Source: Candidatus Staskawiczbacteria bacterium
GTDB taxonomy: Bacteria; Patescibacteriota; Minisyncoccia; Minisyncoccales; Staskawiczbacteraceae
DNA length: 64,000 nucleotides
Assembly (NCBI GenBank): GCA_041661545.1
Contig: JBAZUH010000001.1
Location: 672,148 to 736,147, forward strand
Direction of reading: 5' to 3'
A program made the position numbers and the translations under genes. Under the pieces are notes generated by a model. It saw only the letters and a program-made list of their open reading frames with translations. It was not told the origin of the DNA and ran no database searches. Positions 6,375 to 48,935 of the stretch are shown here, one piece after another. Each line of letters opens with the position of its first letter. Positions within the stretch are counted from its first letter, which is position 1.

Positions 6375-6403
6375 AGTTCAAAAACCCAGTTATACAACTG
6401 GGC

Positions 6404-6440
6404 AAGAGTTATCCACAGTTTGTTAAGTGGATTTTTGTTT
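6404..6440 (+). repeat. Direct repeat copy 1 (aagagTTATCCACAgtttgttaagtggatttttgttt)
   Basis: About 37 bp, repeated at 6950..6986 with 3 mismatches. Contains a perfect TTATCCACA 9-mer and an ATCCAC/GTGGAT hairpin followed by T5. Confidence 0.9.
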
Positions 6441-6488
6441 ATAAAAAGATGTAAAATAGAATAATAAAAAATTAGTTCTTTAAAATAT

Positions 6489-6555
6489 TTGGTGGCCGAA
6501 GATGAAATTTAAATTTTTTGTATTAATATTCATAAATTTCATCTTCGGCTACCAA
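6489..6555 (+). other. Long hairpin (23-bp stem with one G-T pair, 21-nt AT loop) immediately 5' of the HNH gene RBS
   Basis: ttggtggccgaagatgaaattta ... taaatttcatcttcggctaccaa. Confidence 0.85.
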
Positions 6556-6573
6556 CAATCAAGGGGGTAACAA

Positions 6574-6885
6574 ATGAGGTTCTTTAAATGCAGGTGGAAG
6601 ATATGCAGGAGAAAAAGATGTGCAAGGTGTCGCACTCGATATAGAATAACCCGCCATCACGTCATTCCTAAAGTGCATTGCAAAGGTAGTAACGAAATCA
6701 TTCATCTTTGCCGATACTGCCACAAGTGTATTGAGACGATAATTCTAACAGAAGAGGTAATTGCTGGGGGTTGCGACGTAGGAGAAAGGTTTAGGCTTCC
6801 AGACGAGCGCTATCGTGAAATTGCACGCCTGTTTGTTAAAAGAGAATACCAGCCAGCCAGCGCACCCGAGCTTACCAGCTGTTAA
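6574..6885 (+). CDS. Small HNH-family endonuclease in a GC-rich cassette
   Basis: 'RHHVIPK...GSNEIIHLCRYCHKCIE' fits the HNH His-Asn-His/Cys-box pattern. N-terminus is Arg/Cys-rich. Strong SD AAGGGGG. Confidence 0.6.
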   Translation: MRFFKCRWKICRRKRCARCRTRYRITRHHVIPKVHCKGSNEIIHLCRYCHKCIETIILTEEVIAGGCDVGERFRLPDERYREIARLFVKREYQPASAPELTSC

Positions 6886-6915
6886 TTTGTGTCATTTACT
6901 ACCCACCTTCGTGAT

Positions 6916-6944
6916 GGGCTGTTGCACAACGGCCCCATTTTTTT
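6916..6944 (+). terminator. Rho-independent terminator of the HNH cassette
   Basis: gggctgttg-cac-caacggccc (one G-T pair) followed by aT7. Confidence 0.7.
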
Positions 6945-6949
6945 GAGGT

Positions 6950-6986
6950 AAGAGTTATCCACAGCTTATTAAGTGGATTTTTATTT
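6950..6986 (+). repeat. Direct repeat copy 2 (aagagTTATCCACAgcttattaagtggatttttatttt)
   Basis: See 6404..6440. The two copies bracket the HNH cassette 546 bp apart. Confidence 0.9.
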
Positions 6987-7138
6987 TTTAAAACAACGTA
7001 TTGGTAAGTGTGACTTTAAATTATTGTAAAAATATTTGGATAATGGTTTAATTAAATAAAAAATGTGCTAATTTTCTTATAGTTAGAAAATTGAATATAA
7101 ATTTTAAAATAAAATAAAAATTAAATAAGTATAAAATC

Positions 7139-7993
7139 ATGAAAGAATATAAAGATTTTAACAATAAACTAAAATTGTTGATTAGTAAGCGGAGAGATTT
7201 AATCGTCAATACGTTATCTAATATATTTACAATGAGATTAATCGGCAATAAGACGCATGGTGATTTGGCCGAAATAGGAATGGCTGAATTTGTTCATCAG
7301 TTTATGTATGACTACGATAGTAAACATGTTGGGAAAGACCTTTTTCGCGCAAAGGAGCATGAAGAAGATATTATGATTATTAATGAAGTTACAAAGTTCC
7401 AATTCCCAGTTAGTTTAAAGGCATATGGGGATGGCCCTTTACAGCTTTCGACAGATAGTGACCAAAAAATGTTTCCATATCTTGAAAAGCAAGGTAAAGA
7501 TATTGTAAACAAGAAAAAAATTAGAGAAATTTTTTCTTCACAGGCATTCTCTGATTTTAATAATATAAATGTTATGCCTCTAATTTATAATGAACAAAAG
7601 AAGCAATGTAATATCATGGTTTTTGATCATGATAAAGCAATAAAAAATACAGAACGTATTTTTTATATAGGTAAAGAAGAAAGTTTTGGTAGTAAAAAAT
7701 CAGGTAAATCTAGAAAGCACCCAATTTTTTTGTTTTTAGATAATAAAAATAATTATATTTGCGAAGTTAGGTATGGTGGAGCAGCGGCGAATGCATTGCA
7801 AAGAGGCCTTTGGACAAATACAAAGCATGCCAGCTCTTATTTTGATAGTATCACGGACGGGTGGATTGATTATTCGCACAATTTAACGCTTGTAAGATTA
7901 TTTAGTCTTGCGCTAAATAGTCGGGAAGAATGTCATAAAGAGGTGAATGTAATCTTACAAAGAGATATAAATAAATTGAATGAAAGAAAATAG
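7139..7993 (+). CDS. Putative type II restriction endonuclease (family not recognised)
   Basis: 284-aa ORF overlapping the downstream adenine methyltransferase by 14 nt. Possible PD-(D/E)xK-like 'EEDIMIINE...VSLKAYG'. The call rests mainly on context. Confidence 0.45.
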   Translation: MKEYKDFNNKLKLLISKRRDLIVNTLSNIFTMRLIGNKTHGDLAEIGMAEFVHQFMYDYDSKHVGKDLFRAKEHEEDIMIINEVTKFQFPVSLKAYGDGPLQLSTDSDQKMFPYLEKQGKDIVNKKKIREIFSSQAFSDFNNINVMPLIYNEQKKQCNIMVFDHDKAIKNTERIFYIGKEESFGSKKSGKSRKHPIFLFLDNKNNYICEVRYGGAAANALQRGLWTNTKHASSYFDSITDGWIDYSHNLTLVRLFSLALNSREECHKEVNVILQRDINKLNERK

Positions 7994-9134
7994 CACGATG
8001 CCAATATTGTCTAATAGAAAAGATTTTTCTGACATAAAAACTCAGGGTATAAAATATGCGGGTTCTAAGCTAAAAATAATTCCTTACATCTTAGAAAGTA
8101 TTAAAGATTTAAATATTGTAACGGTCTTAGACGGATTTAGTGGTTCTACTAGAGTAAGTCAGGCGCTGGCACAAAGGGGTTATGATGTAGTCTCTAATGA
8201 CATCGCCTGCTGGTCGGAAGTATGTGCAAAATGTTTTTTATTACACAAAAAAGATAAAGAATACTATCAAAATATAATCGATGGCCTCAACTCTCTTAAG
8301 GGATATAGGGGTTGGTTTACTGAACATTATGGTGGCGATGAATCAATGAAAGTGAAAATGCCATTTCAAATAAAAAATACAAAAAAATTAGACGCGATAA
8401 GGGATAGAATTGATGAATTAAAGTTGAACGACATTGATAAGGCAGTTATTTTAACAAGTTTGATATTCGCATTAGACTCAGTAGACAGCACTCTTGGACA
8501 TTTTGTATCATATCTTTCTAAATGGTCTAGTCGTTCTTATAATGATTTAGTGCTTAAGGTCCCTGAATTAATAAAAACCAATGGTAAGCACACAGTACTT
8601 AGGGAAGATATTTTTGATGTCATAAAAGATAATACTTTTGATTTAGCATATTTCGACCCACCCTATGGGTCAAATAATGAAAAAATGCCACCAAGTAGAG
8701 TTAGATACTCATCATATTATCATATTTGGACATCAGTTATTAAAAATGACAGACCACCGCTCTTTGGAAAAGTGAATAGAAGAGAAGACACGAGAGATTT
8801 GATTTCGGCTTCTTTGTTCGAAGAATTTAGAAAAAATGAGAAAGGAAATTTTATTGCGATGGAAACAATAAAGAAAATGATTCAATGCACTAATGCAAGA
8901 TATATCTTGCTTTCTTATAGTTCAGGTGGGCGAGCAACTAAGCAGGAGCTTGAGGATATTTTTGCAGAAACAGGGAAAGTTCTTAAAATTATTGAAATAG
9001 ATTATAAAAAAAATATTATGGCTACTATGCGTTGGACGAATAAGTGGATAAACTCAGACGGTAAACATAAAGAGTACCTTTTTTTAATGGAAAAAAACAC
9101 CAGAGCAGCGGACAATTTATTAAGAAATAAATAA
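7980..9134 (+). CDS. N6-adenine DNA methyltransferase (D12/Dam-like alpha class)
   Basis: 'KYAGSKLKIIPYI' (like the Dam WAGGK motif), SAM motif 'LDGFSGSTRV', then the catalytic 'FDPPYG'. The motif order (I before IV) indicates alpha class. Confidence 0.85.
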   Translation: MKENSTMPILSNRKDFSDIKTQGIKYAGSKLKIIPYILESIKDLNIVTVLDGFSGSTRVSQALAQRGYDVVSNDIACWSEVCAKCFLLHKKDKEYYQNIIDGLNSLKGYRGWFTEHYGGDESMKVKMPFQIKNTKKLDAIRDRIDELKLNDIDKAVILTSLIFALDSVDSTLGHFVSYLSKWSSRSYNDLVLKVPELIKTNGKHTVLREDIFDVIKDNTFDLAYFDPPYGSNNEKMPPSRVRYSSYYHIWTSVIKNDRPPLFGKVNRREDTRDLISASLFEEFRKNEKGNFIAMETIKKMIQCTNARYILLSYSSGGRATKQELEDIFAETGKVLKIIEIDYKKNIMATMRWTNKWINSDGKHKEYLFLMEKNTRAADNLLRNK

Positions 9135-9213
9135 TATATAAAAAATATGATCTTTAAAATTTACTTTTATAGGGCGATATAAAACAAAAGCCCCCATATT
9201 TATAAATAAAAAA

Positions 9214-10167
9214 TTGAAAACAATGGACATTATAGACAAGTTAATAAATAAATTAGTTGGAAGGCATGGCCTTTTTCTTTTGGTTATATTCGCTTCGATT
9301 TCGATGTTACTTGTATCTTGGATAGAATTTTTAGTAAAATTTTATCTTGGTTCATATATCCCAAATATTCAAGACGTTTTACGAGGTGCTTTATTATTAG
9401 TTTTTTGGCTTTTTTTAATTAAAATATGCCAGTGGCTATGGGAAAAAACTATTTTCTTTTTTAAACTAATTAAAAGGTTTATATTAGGAAACAGAATTAT
9501 CTCTGTGCCCGAGGTATCAGAATGGATTTTTCAGGGAAGTTTGAATGTGATAGGTGACTCTTTGGAATTAACCACTTCTAATTCAGGATGTTTAATTAAG
9601 AATTTCTTATATAAAAATTTCTCATTAAATTGCGTTATGAAGATTCCCAATGGGGGTAGGGGGTCGTTAATTTTTCGAGCAAAAGATTTAGAAAATTATC
9701 TAATGATTCAGTTCGAATTAGCTGATACTTCGGACAATGGTACAATAGTCTACGATATAGTGCCCCATATACGCTATATGGGGCACTTCGAAACTTTTAA
9801 AATATATCAACCAGTTTACCCAAATGAAAGACACTTTCCAACACTCGTAAAATACGATAAGATAGGCGGTCTACCAGTGAACCTGAAGGTCCAAAATAGT
9901 GTTGTAAAATTAACAATAGGTATTGAGCGAAAAGAGTTTTATTGGAATATACCGACTCATACAGAGCAAAATATACTCAGCAATATGATCTCGGGGCAAC
10001 AAGAAGCACAACAAAATAAAATAGAATCGCTTACGGGTAGGATAGATCCGCTAGACGGCATACTTGTTCCAAGAATTTGGTTTAGAGGTGGTTACGGGCG
10101 AATTGGTTTTCGCGCATGGGGTTTAGAAAAAATTATTATAAGTGATTTAAAAATAGAACCTATATAA
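9214..10167 (+). CDS. Membrane-anchored protein with a LamG/DUF1080-like (concanavalin-fold) C-terminal domain; likely start ATG 9223
   Basis: Two or three N-terminal TM helices. The C-terminal 'GSLIFRAKD..YLMIQF' and 'GRIGFRAWGLEKIIISDLKIEPI' resemble DUF1080 strand patterns. Weak call. Confidence 0.35.
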   Translation: MKTMDIIDKLINKLVGRHGLFLLVIFASISMLLVSWIEFLVKFYLGSYIPNIQDVLRGALLLVFWLFLIKICQWLWEKTIFFFKLIKRFILGNRIISVPEVSEWIFQGSLNVIGDSLELTTSNSGCLIKNFLYKNFSLNCVMKIPNGGRGSLIFRAKDLENYLMIQFELADTSDNGTIVYDIVPHIRYMGHFETFKIYQPVYPNERHFPTLVKYDKIGGLPVNLKVQNSVVKLTIGIERKEFYWNIPTHTEQNILSNMISGQQEAQQNKIESLTGRIDPLDGILVPRIWFRGGYGRIGFRAWGLEKIIISDLKIEPI

Positions 10168-10177
10168 AGTTAAAGAT

Positions 10178-10360
10178 TTGTATAATTCTAGTGGCGTAAC
10201 AAATCCTCAAGTAAAAACATGGGATGGTAAAAATGAGTTGGGCGAAGTTGTGCCTAATGGAGTTTATACAATAAAAATTGAATTTGAAGATACGGCGGGG
10301 AATTCGGTTATTGATACAAGTAAAACAATTACTGTGGAGATTGTTGAGGCAATAGAATAG
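10178..10360 (+). pseudogene. Orphan C-terminal fragment of a FlgD-Ig-like surface-protein domain
   Basis: 'TWDGKNELGEVVPNGVYTIKIEFEDTAGN' is the classic FlgD-Ig/T9SS-like beta-sandwich motif. Only 60 codons, a TTG pseudo-start and no N-terminal part. Confidence 0.5.
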
Positions 10361-10363
10361 TTG

Positions 10364-10404
10364 ACCCTTCACCATTTGGGTTATATCACGAAATGGTGAA
10401 GGGT
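10364..10404 (+). other. 14-bp perfect inverted repeat (acccttcaccattt / aaatggtgaagggt) abutting the -35 of the next promoter
   Basis: Read directly from the sequence. Both arms are flanked by TTGAC. Confidence 0.85.
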
Positions 10405-10431
10405 TGACTAAACTAAAATTAGTGATAACTT
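10404..10431 (+). promoter_or_regulatory. Promoter of miniprotein module A (TTGACT-16 nt-TG-n-TAACTT)
   Basis: Extended -10. The whole promoter and 5' UTR are about 70 percent identical to 11416..11496. Confidence 0.55.
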
Positions 10432-10484
10432 TATAAATATGAGTAAGCAGTTGGCCCTTTCACAAGTTTAATGGAGAGAAAACC

Positions 10485-10721
10485 ATGAGAACACTGATTA
10501 TGAACAAGAAACCACTTTCCTGGAGAGGAATTTGCTATTTTAGCTTTGGACTTTTGTTTATGTCTATTGCGATTGTAATTATCAGCATACTACCAACAAC
10601 ACTCAACCCTCCTATTTGGGAAAATGGGTCGTTTATTGTGGGAGGAGTAGGTTTAGTGCTATCTTTCATCTTATGGATAATATCGGAGAACAAGTTTGAA
10701 AAACAACAATTTCCGAAATAA
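10485..10721 (+). CDS. 78-aa two-TM miniprotein (paralogue of 11497..11793)
   Basis: SD GGAGAG. Two hydrophobic helices joined by 'NPPIWENGSFIVGG' (compare 'HPPLWKDAYFIAGN' in the paralogue). Confidence 0.6.
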   Translation: MRTLIMNKKPLSWRGICYFSFGLLFMSIAIVIISILPTTLNPPIWENGSFIVGGVGLVLSFILWIISENKFEKQQFPK

Positions 10722-10743
10722 AAATTTTCTTCTCTTTGCCATG

Positions 10744-10774
10744 CCCAGAGCGCACGCTTATGGGTTCTTTTTTT
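10744..10774 (+). terminator. Probable terminator of module A (ends gggttcTTTTTTT)
   Basis: Imperfect ccca..tggg stem plus a T-run. The tail 'gggttcttttttt' recurs at 12268..12280. Confidence 0.45.
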
Positions 10775-10784
10775 ACATAGGTAT

Positions 10785-10838
10785 CCCCAAAAATAGTCGC
10801 GTTTTTGACGGCCGTCAAAAACGCGACTATTTTTGGGG
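10785..10838. repeat. 54-bp perfect palindrome P1 (CCCCAAAAATAGTCGCGTTTTTGACGG | CCGTCAAAAACGCGACTATTTTTGGGG)
   Basis: Both 27-nt arms are exact reverse complements. Related imperfect copies lie at 12351..12399 and 55001..55048. Confidence 0.95.
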
Positions 10839-10851
10839 AACATAAACTAAT

Positions 10852-10877
10852 AAAAAAAGAGTCGAGGGTTGCTCGAC
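10852..10877 (-). terminator. Terminator for the minus-strand gene 10911..11303
   Basis: gtcgag-ggttg-ctcgac, with an A-run on + (a T-run on the minus strand). Confidence 0.55.
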
Positions 10878-10910
10878 AAAAAAGAAGAAAGAATTATGGC
10901 CTAATCAATT

Positions 10911-11303
10911 TTAGAGCGCTACGGTGTTTCCACACTCAGAGCACCAAAATCGGCCGTGGTCGTCGCGAGGCGACATTAGTTTTCCACAACAATATGGCAC
11001 TGCACCCGCCTCTACAATTGAGTCGGTGCGGTCCCAATAATCCCCATTAAGAAGCCCGAGGCTAGCCGGGAAACCTGGAGAAATTTCATCTAAAGTCTTC
11101 TGCACGTCATCTATCGAAGATGATTTGGACGGCGGAGGCTCTCTCTGTAAGCCTTGCGTGCCCGTGTCATTTAACAGTCCCTTGAGATATGCAGTTATAG
11201 CTTCTTCTATGCCCTCGCTAATGGAGGAAGACGACGCTTGTCCTAAAAATCCCGACAATCCAGTTGTGGCAATTGGCCACGCTGATTTTTTTTGGTCTGG
11301 CAT
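10911..11303 (-). CDS. Hypothetical 130-aa protein with C-terminal zinc ribbon (GC-rich islet)
   Basis: 'YCCGKLMSPRDDHGRFWCSECG' is a CxxC-like pair. The N-terminal half is low-complexity and Ser/Gly-rich. G+C is far above background. Confidence 0.45.
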   Translation of the reverse strand: MPDQKKSAWPIATTGLSGFLGQASSSSISEGIEEAITAYLKGLLNDTGTQGLQREPPPSKSSSIDDVQKTLDEISPGFPASLGLLNGDYWDRTDSIVEAGAVPYCCGKLMSPRDDHGRFWCSECGNTVAL

Positions 11304-11415
11304 TTTGGCAATTTCTTTCTATTTAATTTCAGGTTGACAACGAACAACTAAATGATTATTTTAGAGTAACAAATTCAAAAAAGATTAACAAGGGATATAA
11401 TAAAGCTAATTTAGT

Positions 11416-11443
11416 TTGACAAAATCAAAATTAATGATAAATT
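11416..11443 (+). promoter_or_regulatory. Promoter of miniprotein module B (TTGACA-16 nt-TG-n-TAAATT)
   Basis: Homologous to 10404..10431. Confidence 0.55.
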
Positions 11444-11496
11444 AATAACTACGAGCTAATGAACAGCTCTTTTACAACTTTAACAAGGAGAACGCC

Positions 11497-11793
11497 ATGA
11501 ATGAACCGAATGAATTTGACGCAATTGACCGCGATTACAAAGAAGCTTTAAATAAGCTTCGGCGCACTAGAAGATCCTTCACTATTATTTGCACTGTGTT
11601 TGGAATTGGGATGGTGATAAGTGCGCTCGGAATGATTCTTTTCTTTTTTGGGATAGTGAAAGGAGTCATTCATCCGCCACTTTGGAAAGATGCCTATTTT
11701 ATAGCAGGCAACGTTTTGTTTGTGATAGGCATTTTTATACTTGTCTTTATTATCTTTAAGACTGACCGCTTTTGTAGGAGGATAAAATTATGA
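11497..11793 (+). CDS. 98-aa two-TM miniprotein (paralogue of 10485..10721)
   Basis: SD AAGGAG. Same TM-loop-TM layout as the paralogue. The stop overlaps the next start (ATGA). Confidence 0.6.
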   Translation: MNEPNEFDAIDRDYKEALNKLRRTRRSFTIICTVFGIGMVISALGMILFFFGIVKGVIHPPLWKDAYFIAGNVLFVIGIFILVFIIFKTDRFCRRIKL

Positions 11794-12257
11794 ACATACA
11801 AGGATATTCTTTATGTGAGTTGCTTGGGCACATTGAAGATGGTTTGCGCGCAATTAACCCCAAACAATCGTGCGGATACGCTACCATAATGGTAATCAAT
11901 GACAGCGGCTTCGTTGTCTACAAAACATGTCGTTCAGTGGGGCTTAACACATTGCGTGATGAGGGCAATCACTATAATCGCTCTATAAAACAGGCTGATC
12001 GGCTATTTGCTCATCCCAAGCATGTAAGTAGCTATCAAAGCCGAAACCCGCGGCAGAATCAAGGGGCTGGCGCCATACGGGCTGGCTCGGTTATACTTTC
12101 ATTCAGCGGTTTGACGTCAGAGTTTTGCAACGAGGCTTTGGTGCTGTGGGTGGCCCACGTTGTGCGCTGGTTAAGCGTTGATGAGGCGTTTAATATTGCC
12201 AGATTGAGTGGCAACCCTTTAGTTGACGACAATTTTTTTGCTCTTGCCCGGCGATAG
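11790..12257 (+). CDS. Hypothetical 155-aa protein, GC-rich; faint GlcG/DUF336-like pattern
   Basis: Translationally coupled to the miniprotein. 'GAGAIRAGSVILSFSGLTSEF' loosely recalls the GlcG 'GG.PI..G.VIGAIGVSG' motif. The family call is speculative. Confidence 0.5.
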   Translation: MNIQGYSLCELLGHIEDGLRAINPKQSCGYATIMVINDSGFVVYKTCRSVGLNTLRDEGNHYNRSIKQADRLFAHPKHVSSYQSRNPRQNQGAGAIRAGSVILSFSGLTSEFCNEALVLWVAHVVRWLSVDEAFNIARLSGNPLVDDNFFALARR

Positions 12258-12280
12258 AAATATCGAAGGGTTCTTTTTTT
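12247..12280 (+). terminator. Terminator of module B
   Basis: ccc/ggg and cgata-gaaa-tatcg nested stem, then ttcT7. Confidence 0.55.
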
Positions 12281-12332
12281 AGATAAACATACTGTTAAAT
12301 AAAGTTTTTCCACAGGAAAAATTTTACCATTT

Positions 12333-12440
12333 AGCAGTATAAACGAAAATCCCCAAAAATAGCGTTTTTTGACACAAAAAATGCTACCATTTTTGAGGGA
12401 TAAATAAAAATAGCAGTATAAACGAAAATCCCCTTGGGGT
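12333..12440. repeat. 22-bp direct repeats (agcagtataaacgaaaatcccc at 12333 and 12413) flanking imperfect palindrome P2 (12351..12399); the second copy ends in ccccttgggg
   Basis: Read directly from the sequence. The P2 arms share CCCCAAAAATAG..TTTTTGAC with P1 and AAATGGTA.CATTTTTTG with P3. Confidence 0.85.
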
Positions 12441-12469
12441 GATTCTCTGATAGTGATATAATATAAAAT

Positions 12470-13555
12470 ATGGATTTAAGTAATTTAGAGAAAGTTTTAG
12501 AAAATGAGCCAAAATACCGCCTTGCACAAGCTAATGAGGCGGTTTTAAAAAATTTTATATCTGACTGGTCAGAGGCAACTTTTTTTACAAAAGAATTGCG
12601 AGATAAATTAAATAAAGAATGCCCGCTTAAAATTGAAGCGGAAGTTTTGGTTTCCCGCCCAAGAGGGGCGAGGCTCGCCTCGTCAACTGACGAGGCGGCA
12701 AAAAAATCTGATTGTATCAAAGCTAGAATTACTTTAAAAGACGGTTTGCAAGTTGAGTCGGTTTTAATGCGTCACGAAGACCCGCTTCGCCCCGAGGTGA
12801 GTGGCAGAAACACTGTTTGCGTTTCTTGTCAGGTTGGTTGCCCGCTAGGATGTTTATTTTGTGCTACAGGAAAAATGGGCTTAAAAAGAAGTTTAACAAC
12901 AAATGAAATTGTAGAGCAGGTGATTTTTTTTAGTAGATATCTAAAACCAGAAGGCAAGCAGGTGACTAATGTCACTTTTATGGGCATGGGAGAGCCATTT
13001 TTAAATTACGAAAATGTATGGGAGGCTGTAAAAATTTTTAATGATTATAAATATTTTAATATTGGAGTAAGGTCTATTTCTATTTCAACAGCAGGAATTA
13101 TTGAGGGAATAAAAAAACTAAGTGACGAAAAATTGCATGTTAATTTGGCAATTTCTTTGCACGCCCCAAACGATAAACTAAGAAGCCAATTAATGCCAAT
13201 TAATAAAAGATATCCTTTAGAAGAAGTTTTAAAAACAGTTGACCAATATATAGAAAAAACTAAAAGAAAAGTGATGTTTGAGTATGTTTTAATTAAAGAT
13301 GTAAACGATACAGATGAGCATGCTAGGGAATTAGCAAAAATAATGGACAACACTTCGACTTCGCTCAGTGCAAGAAAATTATATTTTGTGAATTTGATTC
13401 TTTATAATGATACTGGAATTTATCAGGCCTCAACAGCACAAAGAGTAAAAGCATTTAGAGATATATTAGAAAAATTAAAAATAAGATATACGCAAAGATA
13501 CAGATTTGGCGACGACATAAGCGCAGCCTGCGGGCAATTTAACACCAAGAAATAG
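12470..13555 (+). CDS. rlmN: 23S rRNA/tRNA (adenine-C2)-methyltransferase RlmN (radical SAM)
   Basis: 'CVSCQVGCPLGCLFCATG' is the CxxxCxxC cluster. 'GMGEPFLNY', 'ISTAG', 'LAISLHAP' and a C-terminal 'AACGQ' are also present. Confidence 0.9.
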   Translation: MDLSNLEKVLENEPKYRLAQANEAVLKNFISDWSEATFFTKELRDKLNKECPLKIEAEVLVSRPRGARLASSTDEAAKKSDCIKARITLKDGLQVESVLMRHEDPLRPEVSGRNTVCVSCQVGCPLGCLFCATGKMGLKRSLTTNEIVEQVIFFSRYLKPEGKQVTNVTFMGMGEPFLNYENVWEAVKIFNDYKYFNIGVRSISISTAGIIEGIKKLSDEKLHVNLAISLHAPNDKLRSQLMPINKRYPLEEVLKTVDQYIEKTKRKVMFEYVLIKDVNDTDEHARELAKIMDNTSTSLSARKLYFVNLILYNDTGIYQASTAQRVKAFRDILEKLKIRYTQRYRFGDDISAACGQFNTKK

Positions 13556-13673
13556 TTTTTATTCACAGTTGAATAGATTTTGTAATTGTGAGATAATTAG
13601 AAAACGTTTTTCGTAAAGGAAGTCCTTTGACTTTTGGTTAGATTTTTGTTAATTTTAATGATAATTAATTTCA

Positions 13674-14333
13674 ATGATAAACAAAGACTTTCTCAAATTA
13701 ACAAACACTATTTACAAGTTATTGGAGTTTTTTCCAGAATCAGATCCATTAAAAAATAGGGCCAAAGATAAGGCTCTAACAATAATGGATAATTTGGTTT
13801 TAATTAACGAAACTAGTGGATGGGCTTCTTTTCAAAAAGAAAAGATAAAAGTGCAACTTTTAGAGGACATAGATATGCTTTTAGGATATCTATGGATTGG
13901 AAAAACGCAAGGTTGGTTGAACTCAGTAAATTATCTTATAGTTGTTAATGAATACGAAAAAATAAAAGAAATTGCTGAGCCCACATTAGAGCCAACTCAG
14001 AAATTACCAGGTTTCGGTGACAAGGGCATAATACAAGAAAAAGAAAACATAGTTCAAGAAAATATTATTCGCGAAAGCTCGGCATTTGCATTATCAGATA
14101 GGCAAACCCCGCCCTTACATGAAGTTACGGCGAGGCAAAGGCAAATTCTTGAATTTTTAGAAAAAAACCAAAAAGCTCAAGTCATGGACTTACAAACAAT
14201 ATTGCCAGATGTCACAAAAAGAACAATTAGAAGGGATTTAGATGAACTTCTTTTGGCAAATAAAATAGTGAGGTTAGGAGATTTTAATCAGGTTTTTTAC
14301 AAAATAAGAGAGAATCAAATTTTAACTAGTTAG
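13674..14333 (+). CDS. DeoR-type winged-HTH regulator with N-terminal helical domain
   Basis: The C-terminal 'RQRQILEFLEKNQKAQVMDLQTILPDVTKRTIRRDLDELL' is a typical DeoR HTH. Confidence 0.55.
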   Translation: MINKDFLKLTNTIYKLLEFFPESDPLKNRAKDKALTIMDNLVLINETSGWASFQKEKIKVQLLEDIDMLLGYLWIGKTQGWLNSVNYLIVVNEYEKIKEIAEPTLEPTQKLPGFGDKGIIQEKENIVQENIIRESSAFALSDRQTPPLHEVTARQRQILEFLEKNQKAQVMDLQTILPDVTKRTIRRDLDELLLANKIVRLGDFNQVFYKIRENQILTS

Positions 14334-14341
14334 TAGGGGGG

Positions 14342-14401
14342 TAGGACATAATTGAGATAGATAGGACAGATAGGACATTTTCTTTAAAATATTATGTCCT
14401 A
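14342..14401 (+). promoter_or_regulatory. TAGGACA motif array (3 direct copies, 1 inverted; 9-bp IR ataggacat/atgtcctat)
   Basis: Copies at 14342, 14362 and 14371, with an inverted copy at 14395. Lies between the DeoR-like gene and the sigma-factor promoter. Confidence 0.6.
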
Positions 14402-14455
14402 TCCCGCCACAGCGGGACCCCGCTAAGGCGGTGGTCAATAATAGAGCAGAAAATA

Positions 14456-38932: not shown

Positions 38933-38979
38933 ATATCGCTACGCTACGTAAACTTATATCGCTACGCTACGTAAACTTA
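38933..38979 (+). repeat. Perfect 2 x 23-bp tandem repeat (atatcgctacgctacgtaaactt) in the transketolase subunit junction
   Basis: Read directly from the sequence. The second unit runs into the ATG of 38979..39485. Confidence 0.9.
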
Positions 38980-46456: not shown

Positions 46457-46488
46457 AACTGCCCCGATGTTGCATCGGGGCAGTTTTT
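46457..46488 (+). terminator. Rho-independent terminator after hpf
   Basis: aactgccccgatg-ttg-catcggggcagtt followed by a T-run. Confidence 0.9.
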
Positions 46489-48935
46489 CGTATAAAGTTA
46501 TATATATGTCATTTTTATCTAAAATTTTTGGAGACCCTAATGAAAAGTTTATAAAAGGCCTTCAACCAATAATCGAAAAAATAAATTCTTTTGAGTCAGA
46601 ATTTGAGAAGTTATCATCTAAGCAATTAAAAGAAAAAACTAAAGAATTTAAACAAAGATTAGCCAGCAATGAAACTTTGGACGATATTTTGCCCGAGGCT
46701 TTTGCATTGGTTAGAGAAGCTGGAAAAAGAACACTAAATCAGCGTCACTTTGATGTTCAAATGGTGGGCGGTATTGTTTTGCATCAAGGCAAAATAGCTG
46801 AAATGAAAACCGGAGAAGGCAAAACCTTGTCGGCTACTCTGCCGGCCTATTTAAACGCTCTAGAAGGCCGTGGAGTGCACGTTGTAACAGTAAACGACTA
46901 TTTGGCCAAACGTGACATGGTTTGGATGGGGCAGGTTTATGGGGCTCTAGGATTGTCTACGGGCTGTATAGTAAACGAGTCTGGGTATGTATATGACGCT
47001 GATTACAAAAATAGCGAATCTGATCAAGAAAGAGATGCAACTGGTAATTTTAAAGTAATTCAAGATTATTTAAAACCAGTATCAAGAAAAGAAGCTTATT
47101 CGGCCGATATTACATATGGAACTAATAATGAATTTGGCTTTGATTATTTAAGAGATAATATGGTTTATGAAAAAAACCAAGAAGCGCAACGCGGACATAA
47201 TTTTGTTATTGTTGACGAAGTAGATTCAATTTTAATTGATGAAGCGCGCGTTCCATTAATAATTTCTGGAGAGTCGGATGACGCAACAGAAAAATATTAT
47301 ACTTTTGCAAAAGTTGTAGCAAATTTAGAAAAGAGCTCCTCGCCTGCGCAGGTAGGAGATTATGAGCTAGATGAAAAAACAAAGTCAGTTGTTTTTACAG
47401 ACCAAGGACAAAATAAAATTGTAAAAAGTTTAGGATTTGATCCATGGTTAGACAATGATATTATTACTACCCATCAATTAGAGTCGGCGTTAAAAGCCAA
47501 AGCATTATTTTTAAAAGATAGAGATTATACCGTAAAAAATGGAGAAATTTTAATTATAGATGAATTTACAGGAAGAATTTTGCCAGGGCGCAGGTGGTCT
47601 GCTGGATTACATCAAGCAGTAGAGGCCAAAGAAGGCGTTGTTGTAAGACCAGAATCTATAACAATGGCCACAATTACTTTTCAGAATTATTTTAGAATGT
47701 ATAAAAAAATATCTGGAATGACTGGAACTGCCATAACTTCGGCCGAAGAATTTGATAAAGTTTATAAGTTAGAGGTAGTAGCAATTCCTTCGCATAGACC
47801 TACTGTTAGACAAGATTTGGCTGATAAAGTTTTTAAAACAGAAGCAGGTAAATTTACAGCTGTTATAAAAGAAATTGAAGAACTTCACAAAAAAGGACAG
47901 CCAATTTTAGTTGGAACAAGATCTGTTGAAAGAAATGAATATTTAGGAAAATTATTAGAAATAAAAGGCATTCCTCACAATATTTTAAATGCAAAGAATC
48001 ACGAAAGAGAAGGAGAAATAGTGGCTCAGGCAGGAAAAGAAGGAGCAGTTACTATTGCTACAAATATGGCTGGACGTGGAGTAGACATTATTTTAGGTGG
48101 CAATCCGCCCAGCACAGAAGAAACTCAAAAGGTTAAAGAATTTGGAGGCCTTCATGTTATTGGCACAGAAAGGCACGACGCTAGAAGAATTGATAATCAA
48201 CTTAGGGGAAGATCTGGAAGACAGGGAGATCCAGGTTCTACACAATTTTTTGTTTCGTTAGAAGACGATTTAATGAGAATTTTTGGTGGTGACAGAATAA
48301 AAGGATTGATGACTGCTTTAAAAATGCCAGAGGATGAACCAATTCAGGCAGGAGTAATATCTGGGGCCATTGAGTCGGCACAAGAAAAAATTGAAGGGTT
48401 TAATTTTGATGCTCGTCATCATTTGTTAGAGTATGATGATGTTTTAAATAAACATAGAGAAATTATTTATAAAAAAAGAAAAGAATATTTAGAGAGTTCT
48501 AATTTGAAAGAAAGGGTTTTAGAAATGTTTCAAAAAGCCGGATTATCAGAAGATGATTATAGTAAAAAAGAAAACGAAATTGGCCAAGAAAATATGAGAC
48601 AAATGGAAAAAGCTATTTCTTTAAGAATTTTAGATTTAGTTTGGCAAGAACATTTGTCTTATATGGATCATATTAGAGATTCTGTTAGGTTAAGAGCTTA
48701 TGGAGGAAGAGACCCATTAGTTGAATATAAAAATGAGGGGCACAAAGCCTTTGGTCAACTATTAGCAACTATAGATGCTAATATTGCAGAAAATATATTA
48801 AAATCAGGGGTACAAGTTAATCAAAATAATCTTCCACAATCAAAAGCTGTTGAGTCAAACAAAAAGGAAATTGGTAGAAATGATTTGTGCCCATGTGGTA
48901 GCGGTAAAAAATATAAAAAATGCCATGGAAAATAA
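46467..48935 (+). CDS. secA: Preprotein translocase ATPase SecA; true start almost certainly ATG 46506 (MSFLSKIFGDPNEK)
   Basis: 'MKTGEGKTL', 'VDEVDSILIDEA', 'GTERHDARRIDNQLRGRSGRQGDPG' and the C-terminal 'CPCGSGKKYKKCHG'. The track start lies inside the upstream terminator. Confidence 0.95.
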   Translation: MLHRGSFSYKVIYMSFLSKIFGDPNEKFIKGLQPIIEKINSFESEFEKLSSKQLKEKTKEFKQRLASNETLDDILPEAFALVREAGKRTLNQRHFDVQMVGGIVLHQGKIAEMKTGEGKTLSATLPAYLNALEGRGVHVVTVNDYLAKRDMVWMGQVYGALGLSTGCIVNESGYVYDADYKNSESDQERDATGNFKVIQDYLKPVSRKEAYSADITYGTNNEFGFDYLRDNMVYEKNQEAQRGHNFVIVDEVDSILIDEARVPLIISGESDDATEKYYTFAKVVANLEKSSSPAQVGDYELDEKTKSVVFTDQGQNKIVKSLGFDPWLDNDIITTHQLESALKAKALFLKDRDYTVKNGEILIIDEFTGRILPGRRWSAGLHQAVEAKEGVVVRPESITMATITFQNYFRMYKKISGMTGTAITSAEEFDKVYKLEVVAIPSHRPTVRQDLADKVFKTEAGKFTAVIKEIEELHKKGQPILVGTRSVERNEYLGKLLEIKGIPHNILNAKNHEREGEIVAQAGKEGAVTIATNMAGRGVDIILGGNPPSTEETQKVKEFGGLHVIGTERHDARRIDNQLRGRSGRQGDPGSTQFFVSLEDDLMRIFGGDRIKGLMTALKMPEDEPIQAGVISGAIESAQEKIEGFNFDARHHLLEYDDVLNKHREIIYKKRKEYLESSNLKERVLEMFQKAGLSEDDYSKKENEIGQENMRQMEKAISLRILDLVWQEHLSYMDHIRDSVRLRAYGGRDPLVEYKNEGHKAFGQLLATIDANIAENILKSGVQVNQNNLPQSKAVESNKKEIGRNDLCPCGSGKKYKKCHGK

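Follow-up and report, generated by a model that had tools for sequence, protein, structure and literature searches.

The rlmN gene of a Candidatus Staskawiczbacteria bacterium carries three short in-frame tracts, here called T1, T2 and T3, which are probably copies of GC-rich, non-coding miniature repeats (21–48 nt) that have become inserted into the protein-coding DNA of an AT-rich lineage of the Candidate Phyla Radiation (CPR). The gene lies in a 64-kb stretch of contig JBAZUH010000001.1 (hereafter the window; 32.5% GC), the + strand of which holds nearly all of its genes. The tracts behave like miniature selfish DNA that is tolerated by proteins, and at least two are members of repeat families. 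The host gene and the tracts are located in the window as follows.

12470–13555, + strand: rlmN, the intact host gene, encoding an essential-type RNA methyltransferase of 361 aa
12652–12703, + strand: T1, a double-hairpin element, with inserted codons at 12656–12700 giving RPRGARLASSTDEAA
12782–12802, + strand: T2, a GC-rich insertion of 21 nt, giving PLRPEVS, with no significant hairpin
13349–13374, + strand: T3, a copy, now decayed, of the 24-nt unit CCCTTCGACTTCGCTCAGGGCAAG (in the window, CACTTCGACTTCGCTCAGTGCAAG), giving NTSTSLSA, with no hairpin

The rlmN product scores 321 bits against the RlmN equivalog model TIGR00048, above its cutoff of 290, and is 100% identical to a protein named RlmN from Ca. 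Staskawiczbacteria, a CPR/Parcubacteria lineage, which is encoded on a 738-kb contig. In an alignment of 62 RlmN sequences, C117, C124, C128, C131 and C354, which represent the radical-SAM CxxxCxxC motif and two catalytic cysteines, are invariant, and all of the catalytic cysteines are kept. A sequence-only reading of the window had described the tracts as GC-rich, hairpin-forming, palindromic insertions that preserve the reading frame. The sequences, coordinates and translations that it quoted were all correct on re-checking, and the frame is indeed preserved across T1, T2 and T3, whereas the description of composition and structure applies only in part. T1 (45 nt, 71% GC; binomial P ~1e-7 versus the rest of the gene, which has 32.2% GC) and T2 (71% GC; P ~3e-4) are GC-rich, but T3 has just 50% GC (P ~0.05). 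In fold tests, only T1 forms a hairpin structure (z = −4.7, as compared with −0.5 for T2 and +0.5 for T3), and the label “palindromic” is therefore appropriate for T1 and not for T2 or T3. By composition T3 would be indistinguishable from chance; it is the comparative evidence that shows it to have been inserted.

That T1, T2 and T3 are insertions and not ancestral loops is supported by the comparison of RlmN orthologues. In the alignment to the solved RlmN/Cfr structures 6fz6, 9p0p and 3rf9, gaps are found exactly at T1, T2 and T3, and none of the three is present in the modal orthologue (331 aa), in agreement with the earlier claim that the family is normally shorter at these positions. Among the 120 closest orthologues, which are 65–80% identical and range from 329 to 386 aa around a base length of 331, the variation in length clusters at approximately six hotspots; 83 contain an internal insert of at least 4 aa and 37 contain none. 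The syntenic DNA of eight orthologues was aligned codon by codon, giving nine genes for comparison. The core codons have 32–37% GC in all nine, whereas the inserted codons have 57–72% GC in seven of the eight insert-carrying genes (the exception, L087, has 40%), and Gly, Ala, Arg and Pro account for 43% of insert residues versus 18% of core residues. In the AlphaFold model of RlmN, with a mean predicted local distance difference test (pLDDT) score of 83.9, residues 62–79, corresponding to T1, score below 50 and are predicted to be disordered; the inserts are predicted to sit in loops, T2 in the turn between strands 94–102 and 113–119 and T3 between helix 282–292 and strand 305–310. The proposal of insertion in surface loops is thus borne out by the predicted loop positions and by the GC contrast between inserted and core codons. 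The sequence-only reading had also noted that the same residues encoded by AT-rich codons in relatives would indicate ancestral loops; instead, these residues are missing from some relatives and are encoded by the same GC-rich DNA in the others.

Judged from sequence comparison, the presence and absence of inserts are almost random on the gene tree, a weak neighbour-joining tree calculated from 331 core columns, on which the number of gains and losses is uncertain. The parsimony changes observed at five sites (14, 19, 28, 10 and 22) are close to the randomised means (16, 22, 38, 12.5 and 24, respectively), and such near-random counts require many gains and losses. The nearest relative of the window in the core, P0004, shares T3, has neither T1 nor T2, and carries two other inserts that are lacking in the window. 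A scan of a genome collection with RlmN gave no relative above 64% identity among the matches listed. At site 3 of the L083 rlmN gene, an AT-rich repeat, attgaaaattgtaaattgaaaattgaaaat (IENCKLKIEN), was observed, which is also present in P0091, P0095, P0106 and P0107; its occurrence at the same rlmN hotspot indicates that these loops also accept repeat DNA that is not GC-rich.

T1 is a dispersed repeat family with two hairpins. In hairpin A, CGCCC (12656–12660) pairs with GGGCG (12666–12670), and in hairpin B, positions 12673–12684 pair with 12689–12699, leaving a one-base bulge at T12675; the perfect arms of the latter (12676–12685 and 12688–12697) form the longest of the 15 GC-rich perfect hairpins in the window, as compared with approximately 3 in shuffled sequences. 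Folded as single-stranded DNA (ssDNA), T1 forms two adjacent hairpins at −18.4 kcal/mol, and none of 200 shuffles was as stable. A scan of metagenomes with the 18-nt core of T1 gave at least 120 matches, which are of two kinds among the matches listed: in GC-rich contigs, the core lies inside GTAG-tagged hairpins resembling repetitive extragenic palindromic (REP) sequences, and in AT-rich contigs (36–46% GC), the whole architecture is present. This architecture, YCC-CGCCCC-loop-GGGGCG-AGGCTC-GCCTCG-loop-CGAGGC-GGC, has invariant stems and two variable loops in 12 copies. All of the copies seen in AT-rich contigs, again among the matches listed, fall inside open reading frames (ORFs); the copies are in frame, three frames and both orientations being represented, and the long ORFs that hold them come from unrelated genes, which include, besides rlmN, those for PBP2-like, GyrB-like and TatD-like proteins, an MBL-fold hydrolase, an LTD protein and others. 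The copy in the TatD-like protein corresponds to a clean gap of 17 residues against PDB entry 6l25, and T1 occupies one identical position in four loci.

The pairing of T1 is maintained among its copies. In the 12-copy alignment, 94.5% of cells are paired, versus 40–56% when the partner columns are slid, and compensatory double changes are found in two pairs. A covariance model built from these copies, which matches the window copy with 73.6 bits, identified one further copy, in reverse orientation, in the LTD gene that adjoins rlmN in L085; this copy is decayed, and both stems are altered on both sides (CGCTCT/AGAGCG and GCCTCA/TGAGGC). No match to the T1 18-mer was found in viral contigs, and a GTAG adjoining the stem is absent from all 12 copies. 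In L304, a single MBL-fold hydrolase gene contains inserts of both types, T1 (REAASPNGEASLAPGKGRG) and T3 (PFDTAQGK). In the window itself, an intergenic GC-rich double hairpin, TCCCGCcacaGCGGGA plus CCCCGCtaagGCGGTGG (z = −3.2), is located at 14394–14440 between a DeoR-like gene and a sigma-70 gene; its architecture is T1-like, and it is not matched by the T1 covariance model.

T3 also belongs to a repeat family, which consists of a discrete 24-nt unit. Its bounds are 13349–13372, or 13351–13374 when taken as the element unit, and when alleles with and without the insert are compared, it maps as CCCTTCGACTTCGCTCAGGGCAAG, flanked by AA and AAAA. The orthologous insert in L088 is AACCCTTCGACTTCGCTCAGGGCA, and the copies in L088 and L087 are nearer to the consensus than that of the window, which differs from it by two GC-to-AT changes (the 19-mer core being matched with 2 mismatches); the L084 copy has more. 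These GC-to-AT differences of the window and L084 copies from that of L088 fit the decay of a shared older insertion. The core CCCTTCGACTTCGCTCAGGG is found at site 4 in forward orientation, at site 3 in reverse orientation in L086–L088 and forward in L085, and at site 5 in L084. The reverse copy, which follows RYLKK in L086–L088, is ATCACCCTGAGCGAAGTCGAAGGG and is read as ITLSEVEG, and the copy at the third rlmN hotspot, in L084, is read as FDSAQDK. Five of the six frames of the unit are open, and all five were observed. The occurrence of one sequence at three sites, in two orientations and in several frames excludes selection on the peptide. In the window, fuzzy matching revealed no T3 copy beyond that in rlmN.

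The 19-mer core CCTTCGACTYCGCTCAGGR is present in at least 120 viral contigs (L089–L208) with GC contents of 31–73%, as compared with a chance expectation of 1–2, a rough estimate that assumes the size of the collection. An inverted partner lies nearby in approximately one-fifth of these copies (among the matches listed), and in several contigs, of which L126, L157, L110 and L122 are the most notable, the core is situated in hairpin loops whose stems differ between loci. L126 and L157 each contain several copies of a REP-like hairpin that are empty and one copy with a T3 unit of 23–24 nt in its loop. The extent of the unit is the same, 23–24 nt, where it occupies the hairpin loops of a phage-like contig and where it occupies rlmN, and in the L126 loop T3 may be flanked by a TAT duplication. 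The inverted T3 doublet, when searched in plasmids, gave just unannotated intergenic repeats on Sphingomonas plasmids. No Rfam family was found at gathering thresholds in the whole window or in eight T3-bearing loci, a tRNA/tmRNA scan found none, and no pertinent publication emerged when the sequences and peptides of the elements were searched in the full-text literature. An origin of T3 as a tRNA, tmRNA or rRNA fragment or an adaptor remnant was considered and set aside: no convincing match is known, and the copies vary, occur in independent assemblies and are in frame.

T2, the weakest case of the three, is grouped with the mobile elements by analogy. The T2 DNA is present in L081 and L085 and absent from L082–L084 and L086–L088; an insert at this site is found in 24 of the 120 orthologues, 22 of which carry a PLRPExS-type peptide. 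T2 looks similar both to hairpin B in T1 (GCTTCG..CGAGG) and to T3's 3′ half (CTTCGC..AGGTGA), and in L087, at the end of the clpB gene, an insertion holds a similar GCTTCG..CGAGGC hairpin; these likenesses are too short for proof. A mutual relatedness of the three tracts was not demonstrated: they represent separate families, and T2 and T3 share only the weak CTTCGC..AGGTGA resemblance. The kinship that the sequence-only reading had suggested between the tracts and intergenic hairpins (2941, 15010, 38933, 52861 and 61790) was not upheld either. The sole shared 9-mer is at 2945, the T1 covariance model (filters off) and fuzzy T2 and T3 searches of the window match the rlmN copies only, and the five sites consist of terminator-like hairpins or tandem repeats with no detectable kinship to the tracts.

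Comparable inserts were found in two other genes of the window, as given below.

47334–47354, + strand: GC-rich, in-frame insert SSSPAQV (AGCTCCTCGCCTGCGCAGGTA, containing the palindrome CCTGCGCAGG) in secA (46467–48935)
2799–2819, + strand: GC-rich, in-frame insert AKLAGTA in an HtrA-like protease gene (1623–2867), with the hairpin CCTGCCaaaTTGGCAGG at 2796–2812

The secA insert corresponds to a gap in T. maritima SecA, and its 18-nt tract is the sole indel relative to the closest sister orthologue, which is 88% identical; nine other SecA orthologues have inserts at the same site (e.g., SLPAQAG and NPSASSGQA). In a set of 120 SecA orthologues, inserts are patchy and show the same peptide signatures as those of RlmN (NPSTGSGQA, SAQGGPASG and GLPAQAG), and T3-type inserts are found in both proteins. 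The HtrA-like insert, which contains a perfect 7-bp hairpin, is missing from three orthologues; similar CCTGCC..GGCAGG inserts (LPAGG and LPAQTG) are present in the DeoR-like and rlmN genes of relatives, in which the genes neighbouring rlmN also hold similar GC-rich mini-inserts.

With regard to mechanism, we infer that new copies would be generated as DNA, either through transposition in trans, for which an HUH/RAYT-like enzyme (RAYT, REP-associated tyrosine transposase) could be the actor, or by template-switch copying with single-stranded hairpin DNA. The constant stems and free loops of T1, the location of T3 in hairpin loops and the REP-like relatives together suggest a process whose substrate is hairpin DNA in single-stranded form. 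Selection would then retain those copies that have a length divisible by three, lack stop codons and lie in surface loops. Four to five of the six frames are open in T1, T2 and T3, and six of six in the double mini-hairpin; a high GC content itself eliminates stop codons, and T3, being 24 nt long, necessarily leaves the frame intact. The copies may later decay under AT-biased mutation and be lost by deletion, and the inserted peptides themselves may have no role.

Several observations weigh against an origin of the tracts as copies of mobile elements. No transposase or other mobilising enzyme was found in a Pfam scan of 20 of the approximately 58 ORFs in the window, and no target-site duplication is evident, there being no consistent one at the rlmN sites. 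Each family has a single copy in the window, in which the covariance model, run with filters off, detected no second copy of T1. T2 was found nowhere beyond its own orthologous site, a fuzzy search of the window matching the rlmN copy only, and the 36 matches of its 16-mer in viral contigs are, by a rough estimate, at chance level and uninformative. The contrast between filled and empty sites is drawn from orthologues, the closest of which is 80% identical overall, and the weak tree leaves the count of gains and losses uncertain. Finally, a structural function under selection could instead be the reason for the stem conservation and the compensatory changes.

This last possibility is the main rival explanation, although it is compatible with the insertion of mobile copies. 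According to it, the hairpins are selected nucleic-acid structures that are useful and not selfish, acting in mRNA to slow ribosomes or to shield the transcript, or in DNA as sites for a host protein, as proposed for REPs. The invariance of the T1 stems across 12 copies with varying loops, the compensatory changes that maintain pairing even in the decayed copy with both stems changed on both sides, and the existence of a different double hairpin in the intergenic region 14394–14440 are all consistent with such a role. However, T2 and T3 do not fold, the elements are missing from most orthologues with a near-random distribution, copies lie in both orientations within genes and would therefore give differing RNA structures, and T3 copies decay toward AT; in addition, stem conservation is equally expected if copying needs the hairpin. 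On balance, we consider this explanation unlikely. Somewhat less likely still is the repeated local generation of inserts in permissive loops by slippage or quasi-palindrome template switching with no mobile source, in which case the likeness among inserts would be convergence on flexible linkers rich in Gly, Ala, Pro, Arg and Ser. The hypervariable hotspots do hold unrelated AT-rich inserts as well (L087 site 1 and the IENCKLKIEN-type repeats), and T1 looks like a zig-zag of complementary blocks that fold-back synthesis could produce, but convergence on a peptide is ruled out by identical strings of 19–45 nt that unrelated genes share in differing frames and orientations, and the T3 unit has the same extent of 23–24 nt in rlmN and in the hairpin loops of the phage-like contig.

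Two further explanations have very little probability. If the tracts were ancestral, functionally needed loops of an RlmN clade that most lineages have lost, the good conservation of the PLRPExS peptides in 22 carriers and the identical position of T1 in four loci would be readily understood; this account, already largely refuted, is highly improbable in view of the strong GC contrast with the surrounding gene, the near-random tree distribution, the presence of the same DNA at other sites and in other genes, the predicted disorder of T1 and the 37 of 120 orthologues that are free of inserts. The least credible of all is that the elements are untranslated, being either excised from the mRNA or skipped by the ribosome in the manner of the GC-cluster-derived byp elements of Magnusiomyces mitochondria. 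A literature precedent exists (PMC8811140), and GC-rich hairpins are the type of signal used for bypassing, but every in-gene copy keeps the frame and is free of stop codons, neither of which is required if the element is skipped; this argument is weakened by ascertainment, as broken genes would escape retrieval.

A bolder extension of the interpretation as mobile copies can be put forward only tentatively and is more doubtful than not by a wide measure. The CCCTTCGACTTCGCTCAGGG(CAAG/TGAY) unit might be an ultra-small mobile DNA common to bacterial phyla and viruses, installed by an unrecognised enzyme or a templated form of copying, either of them directed at ssDNA (e.g., hairpin loops), and, together with the T1 family, it might make CPR housekeeping proteins a large, undescribed reservoir of in-frame selfish DNA. 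Under such an extension, the multiple-of-three length of T3 and its five open frames out of six would permit near-free colonising of coding sequence.

Other features of the window were also recorded. The region from clpB to rlmN, at approximately 6400–12400, is absent in L082, where clpB directly precedes rlmN; it contains a D12-class N6-adenine DNA methyltransferase gene (7980–9134) and several ORFs with no Pfam match, has a raised GC content (0.39 at 10–12 kb), and looks like a variable island. Within it, a near-perfect palindrome of 58 nt, CCCCAAAAATAGTCGCGTTTTTGACGGCCGTCAAAAACGCGACTATTTTTGGGG, lies between two ORFs at 10783–10840 and is probably a bidirectional terminator; the microRNA-precursor matches obtained there on both strands in an E-value Rfam scan of 10100–13700 were dismissed as chance matches on a palindrome. 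Two exact copies of a 23-nt direct repeat, TAGCAGTATAAACGAAAATCCCC, lie upstream of rlmN at 12332 and 12411, as does a 36-nt repeat with 78% identity at 12297 and 12357; the repeats within 12297–12433 are a duplicated promoter-proximal module. At 38933–38978, in the spacer before the gene at 38979, a 23-nt unit, ATATCGCTACGCTACGTAAACTT, is present as two tandem copies that are unrelated to the rlmN tracts.

In-frame selfish DNA has so far been associated with Rickettsia, a few intragenic REPs and mitochondria, and high turnover of such DNA is now seen in CPR core genes. The genes affected (rlmN, secA, clpB and tatD-, gyrB- and penicillin-binding-protein-like genes) belong to an enormous and poorly explored portion of the bacterial tree. 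Protein alignments are lengthened and made unstable by the inserts, which create spurious “lineage-specific loops”; they also mark loops that tolerate 7–16 extra residues, and could serve as fine-scale strain markers. The size of 21–48 nt, a family with constant stems and free loops, and a 24-nt unit distributed over genomes of 31–73% GC raise the question of how such short DNA gets copied.

The sequence-only reading had compared the tracts with the Rickettsia palindromic elements (RPEs). RPEs are approximately 100–150 bp in length and form one long hairpin. The present elements, in contrast, measure 21–48 nt (45, 21 and 24 nt for the three tracts), T1 alone folds, as two short hairpins, and they are found in a CPR lineage; as they are far below RPE size, the relation is one of analogy and not of membership. 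What stands of the comparison is the mode of behaviour, namely, the occurrence of T1 and T3 in other genes or sites, in both orientations and in several frames, and the traits shared with RPEs are in-frame insertion in unrelated genes, tolerance at the protein surface and patchiness among relatives. RPEs (Ogata et al., 2000, as cited in PMC3733652) are non-coding repeats that sit in frame within numerous unrelated and seemingly functional genes, in a genome that is small and AT-rich. The GC clusters of yeast mitochondria are likewise short GC-rich palindromes of an AT-rich genome that cause in-frame polymorphism in var1, with loops that evolve faster than stems and elements that merge and shuffle (PMC8811140). 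T1 similarly is a GC-rich palindrome that gives in-frame length polymorphism, here among orthologues and not among strains. However, GC clusters are organellar and mostly intergenic and have AG/TAG terminal repeats that are read as target duplications (PMC8811140). Such repeats were not seen here: the rlmN sites show no consistent duplication, and a possible TAT duplication borders T3 in the hairpin loop of L126.

Two adjacent short GC-rich hairpins forming a unit, as in T1 and in the TCCGCCcaaGGCGGA-CCAGCCtcgGGCTGG element, are also a feature of the double-hairpin elements of chytrid and fungal mitochondria, which Paquin et al. reportedly described in 2000 from the coding and non-coding DNA of AT-rich genomes, with mobility deduced from patchiness. 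Those elements are mitochondrial and have no kinship in sequence with the tracts. Bacterial MITEs (miniature transposable elements with inverted repeats) make target duplications. Such elements (Correia/NEMIS, RUP, ERIC and Nezha) resemble the tracts in being non-autonomous and dispersed, some being co-transcribed or fused to ORFs, but the units of 21–48 nt described here have no terminal inverted repeats and no evident target duplication. MITEs are 70–300 bp in length and have terminal inverted repeats of 15–30 bp (PMC3733652).

REPs and REPINs are stem-loops of 20–40 nt with RAYT transposases, and intragenic examples of REPs are on record (Di Nocera et al., 2013, PMC3733652). The core of T1, GGGGCGAGGCTCGCCTCG, is identical to that of the REP-like hairpins (GTAGGGGCGAGGC..GCCTCGCCCCTAC) of GC-rich metagenome contigs, and each T1 hairpin fits a GC-rich stem-loop of 20–40 nt, yet the unit has two of them, and T2 and T3 do not fold. 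Unlike REPs, T1 carries no GTAG/CGTC tag, is genic rather than extragenic and has one copy in the 64-kb window; no RAYT turned up in the Pfam scan of 20 window ORFs, no search aimed at RAYT having been made. No description of such elements in CPR bacteria or Patescibacteria was found in the searchable literature. The tracts thus work like RPEs, GC clusters and intragenic REPs, but stand outside those families.

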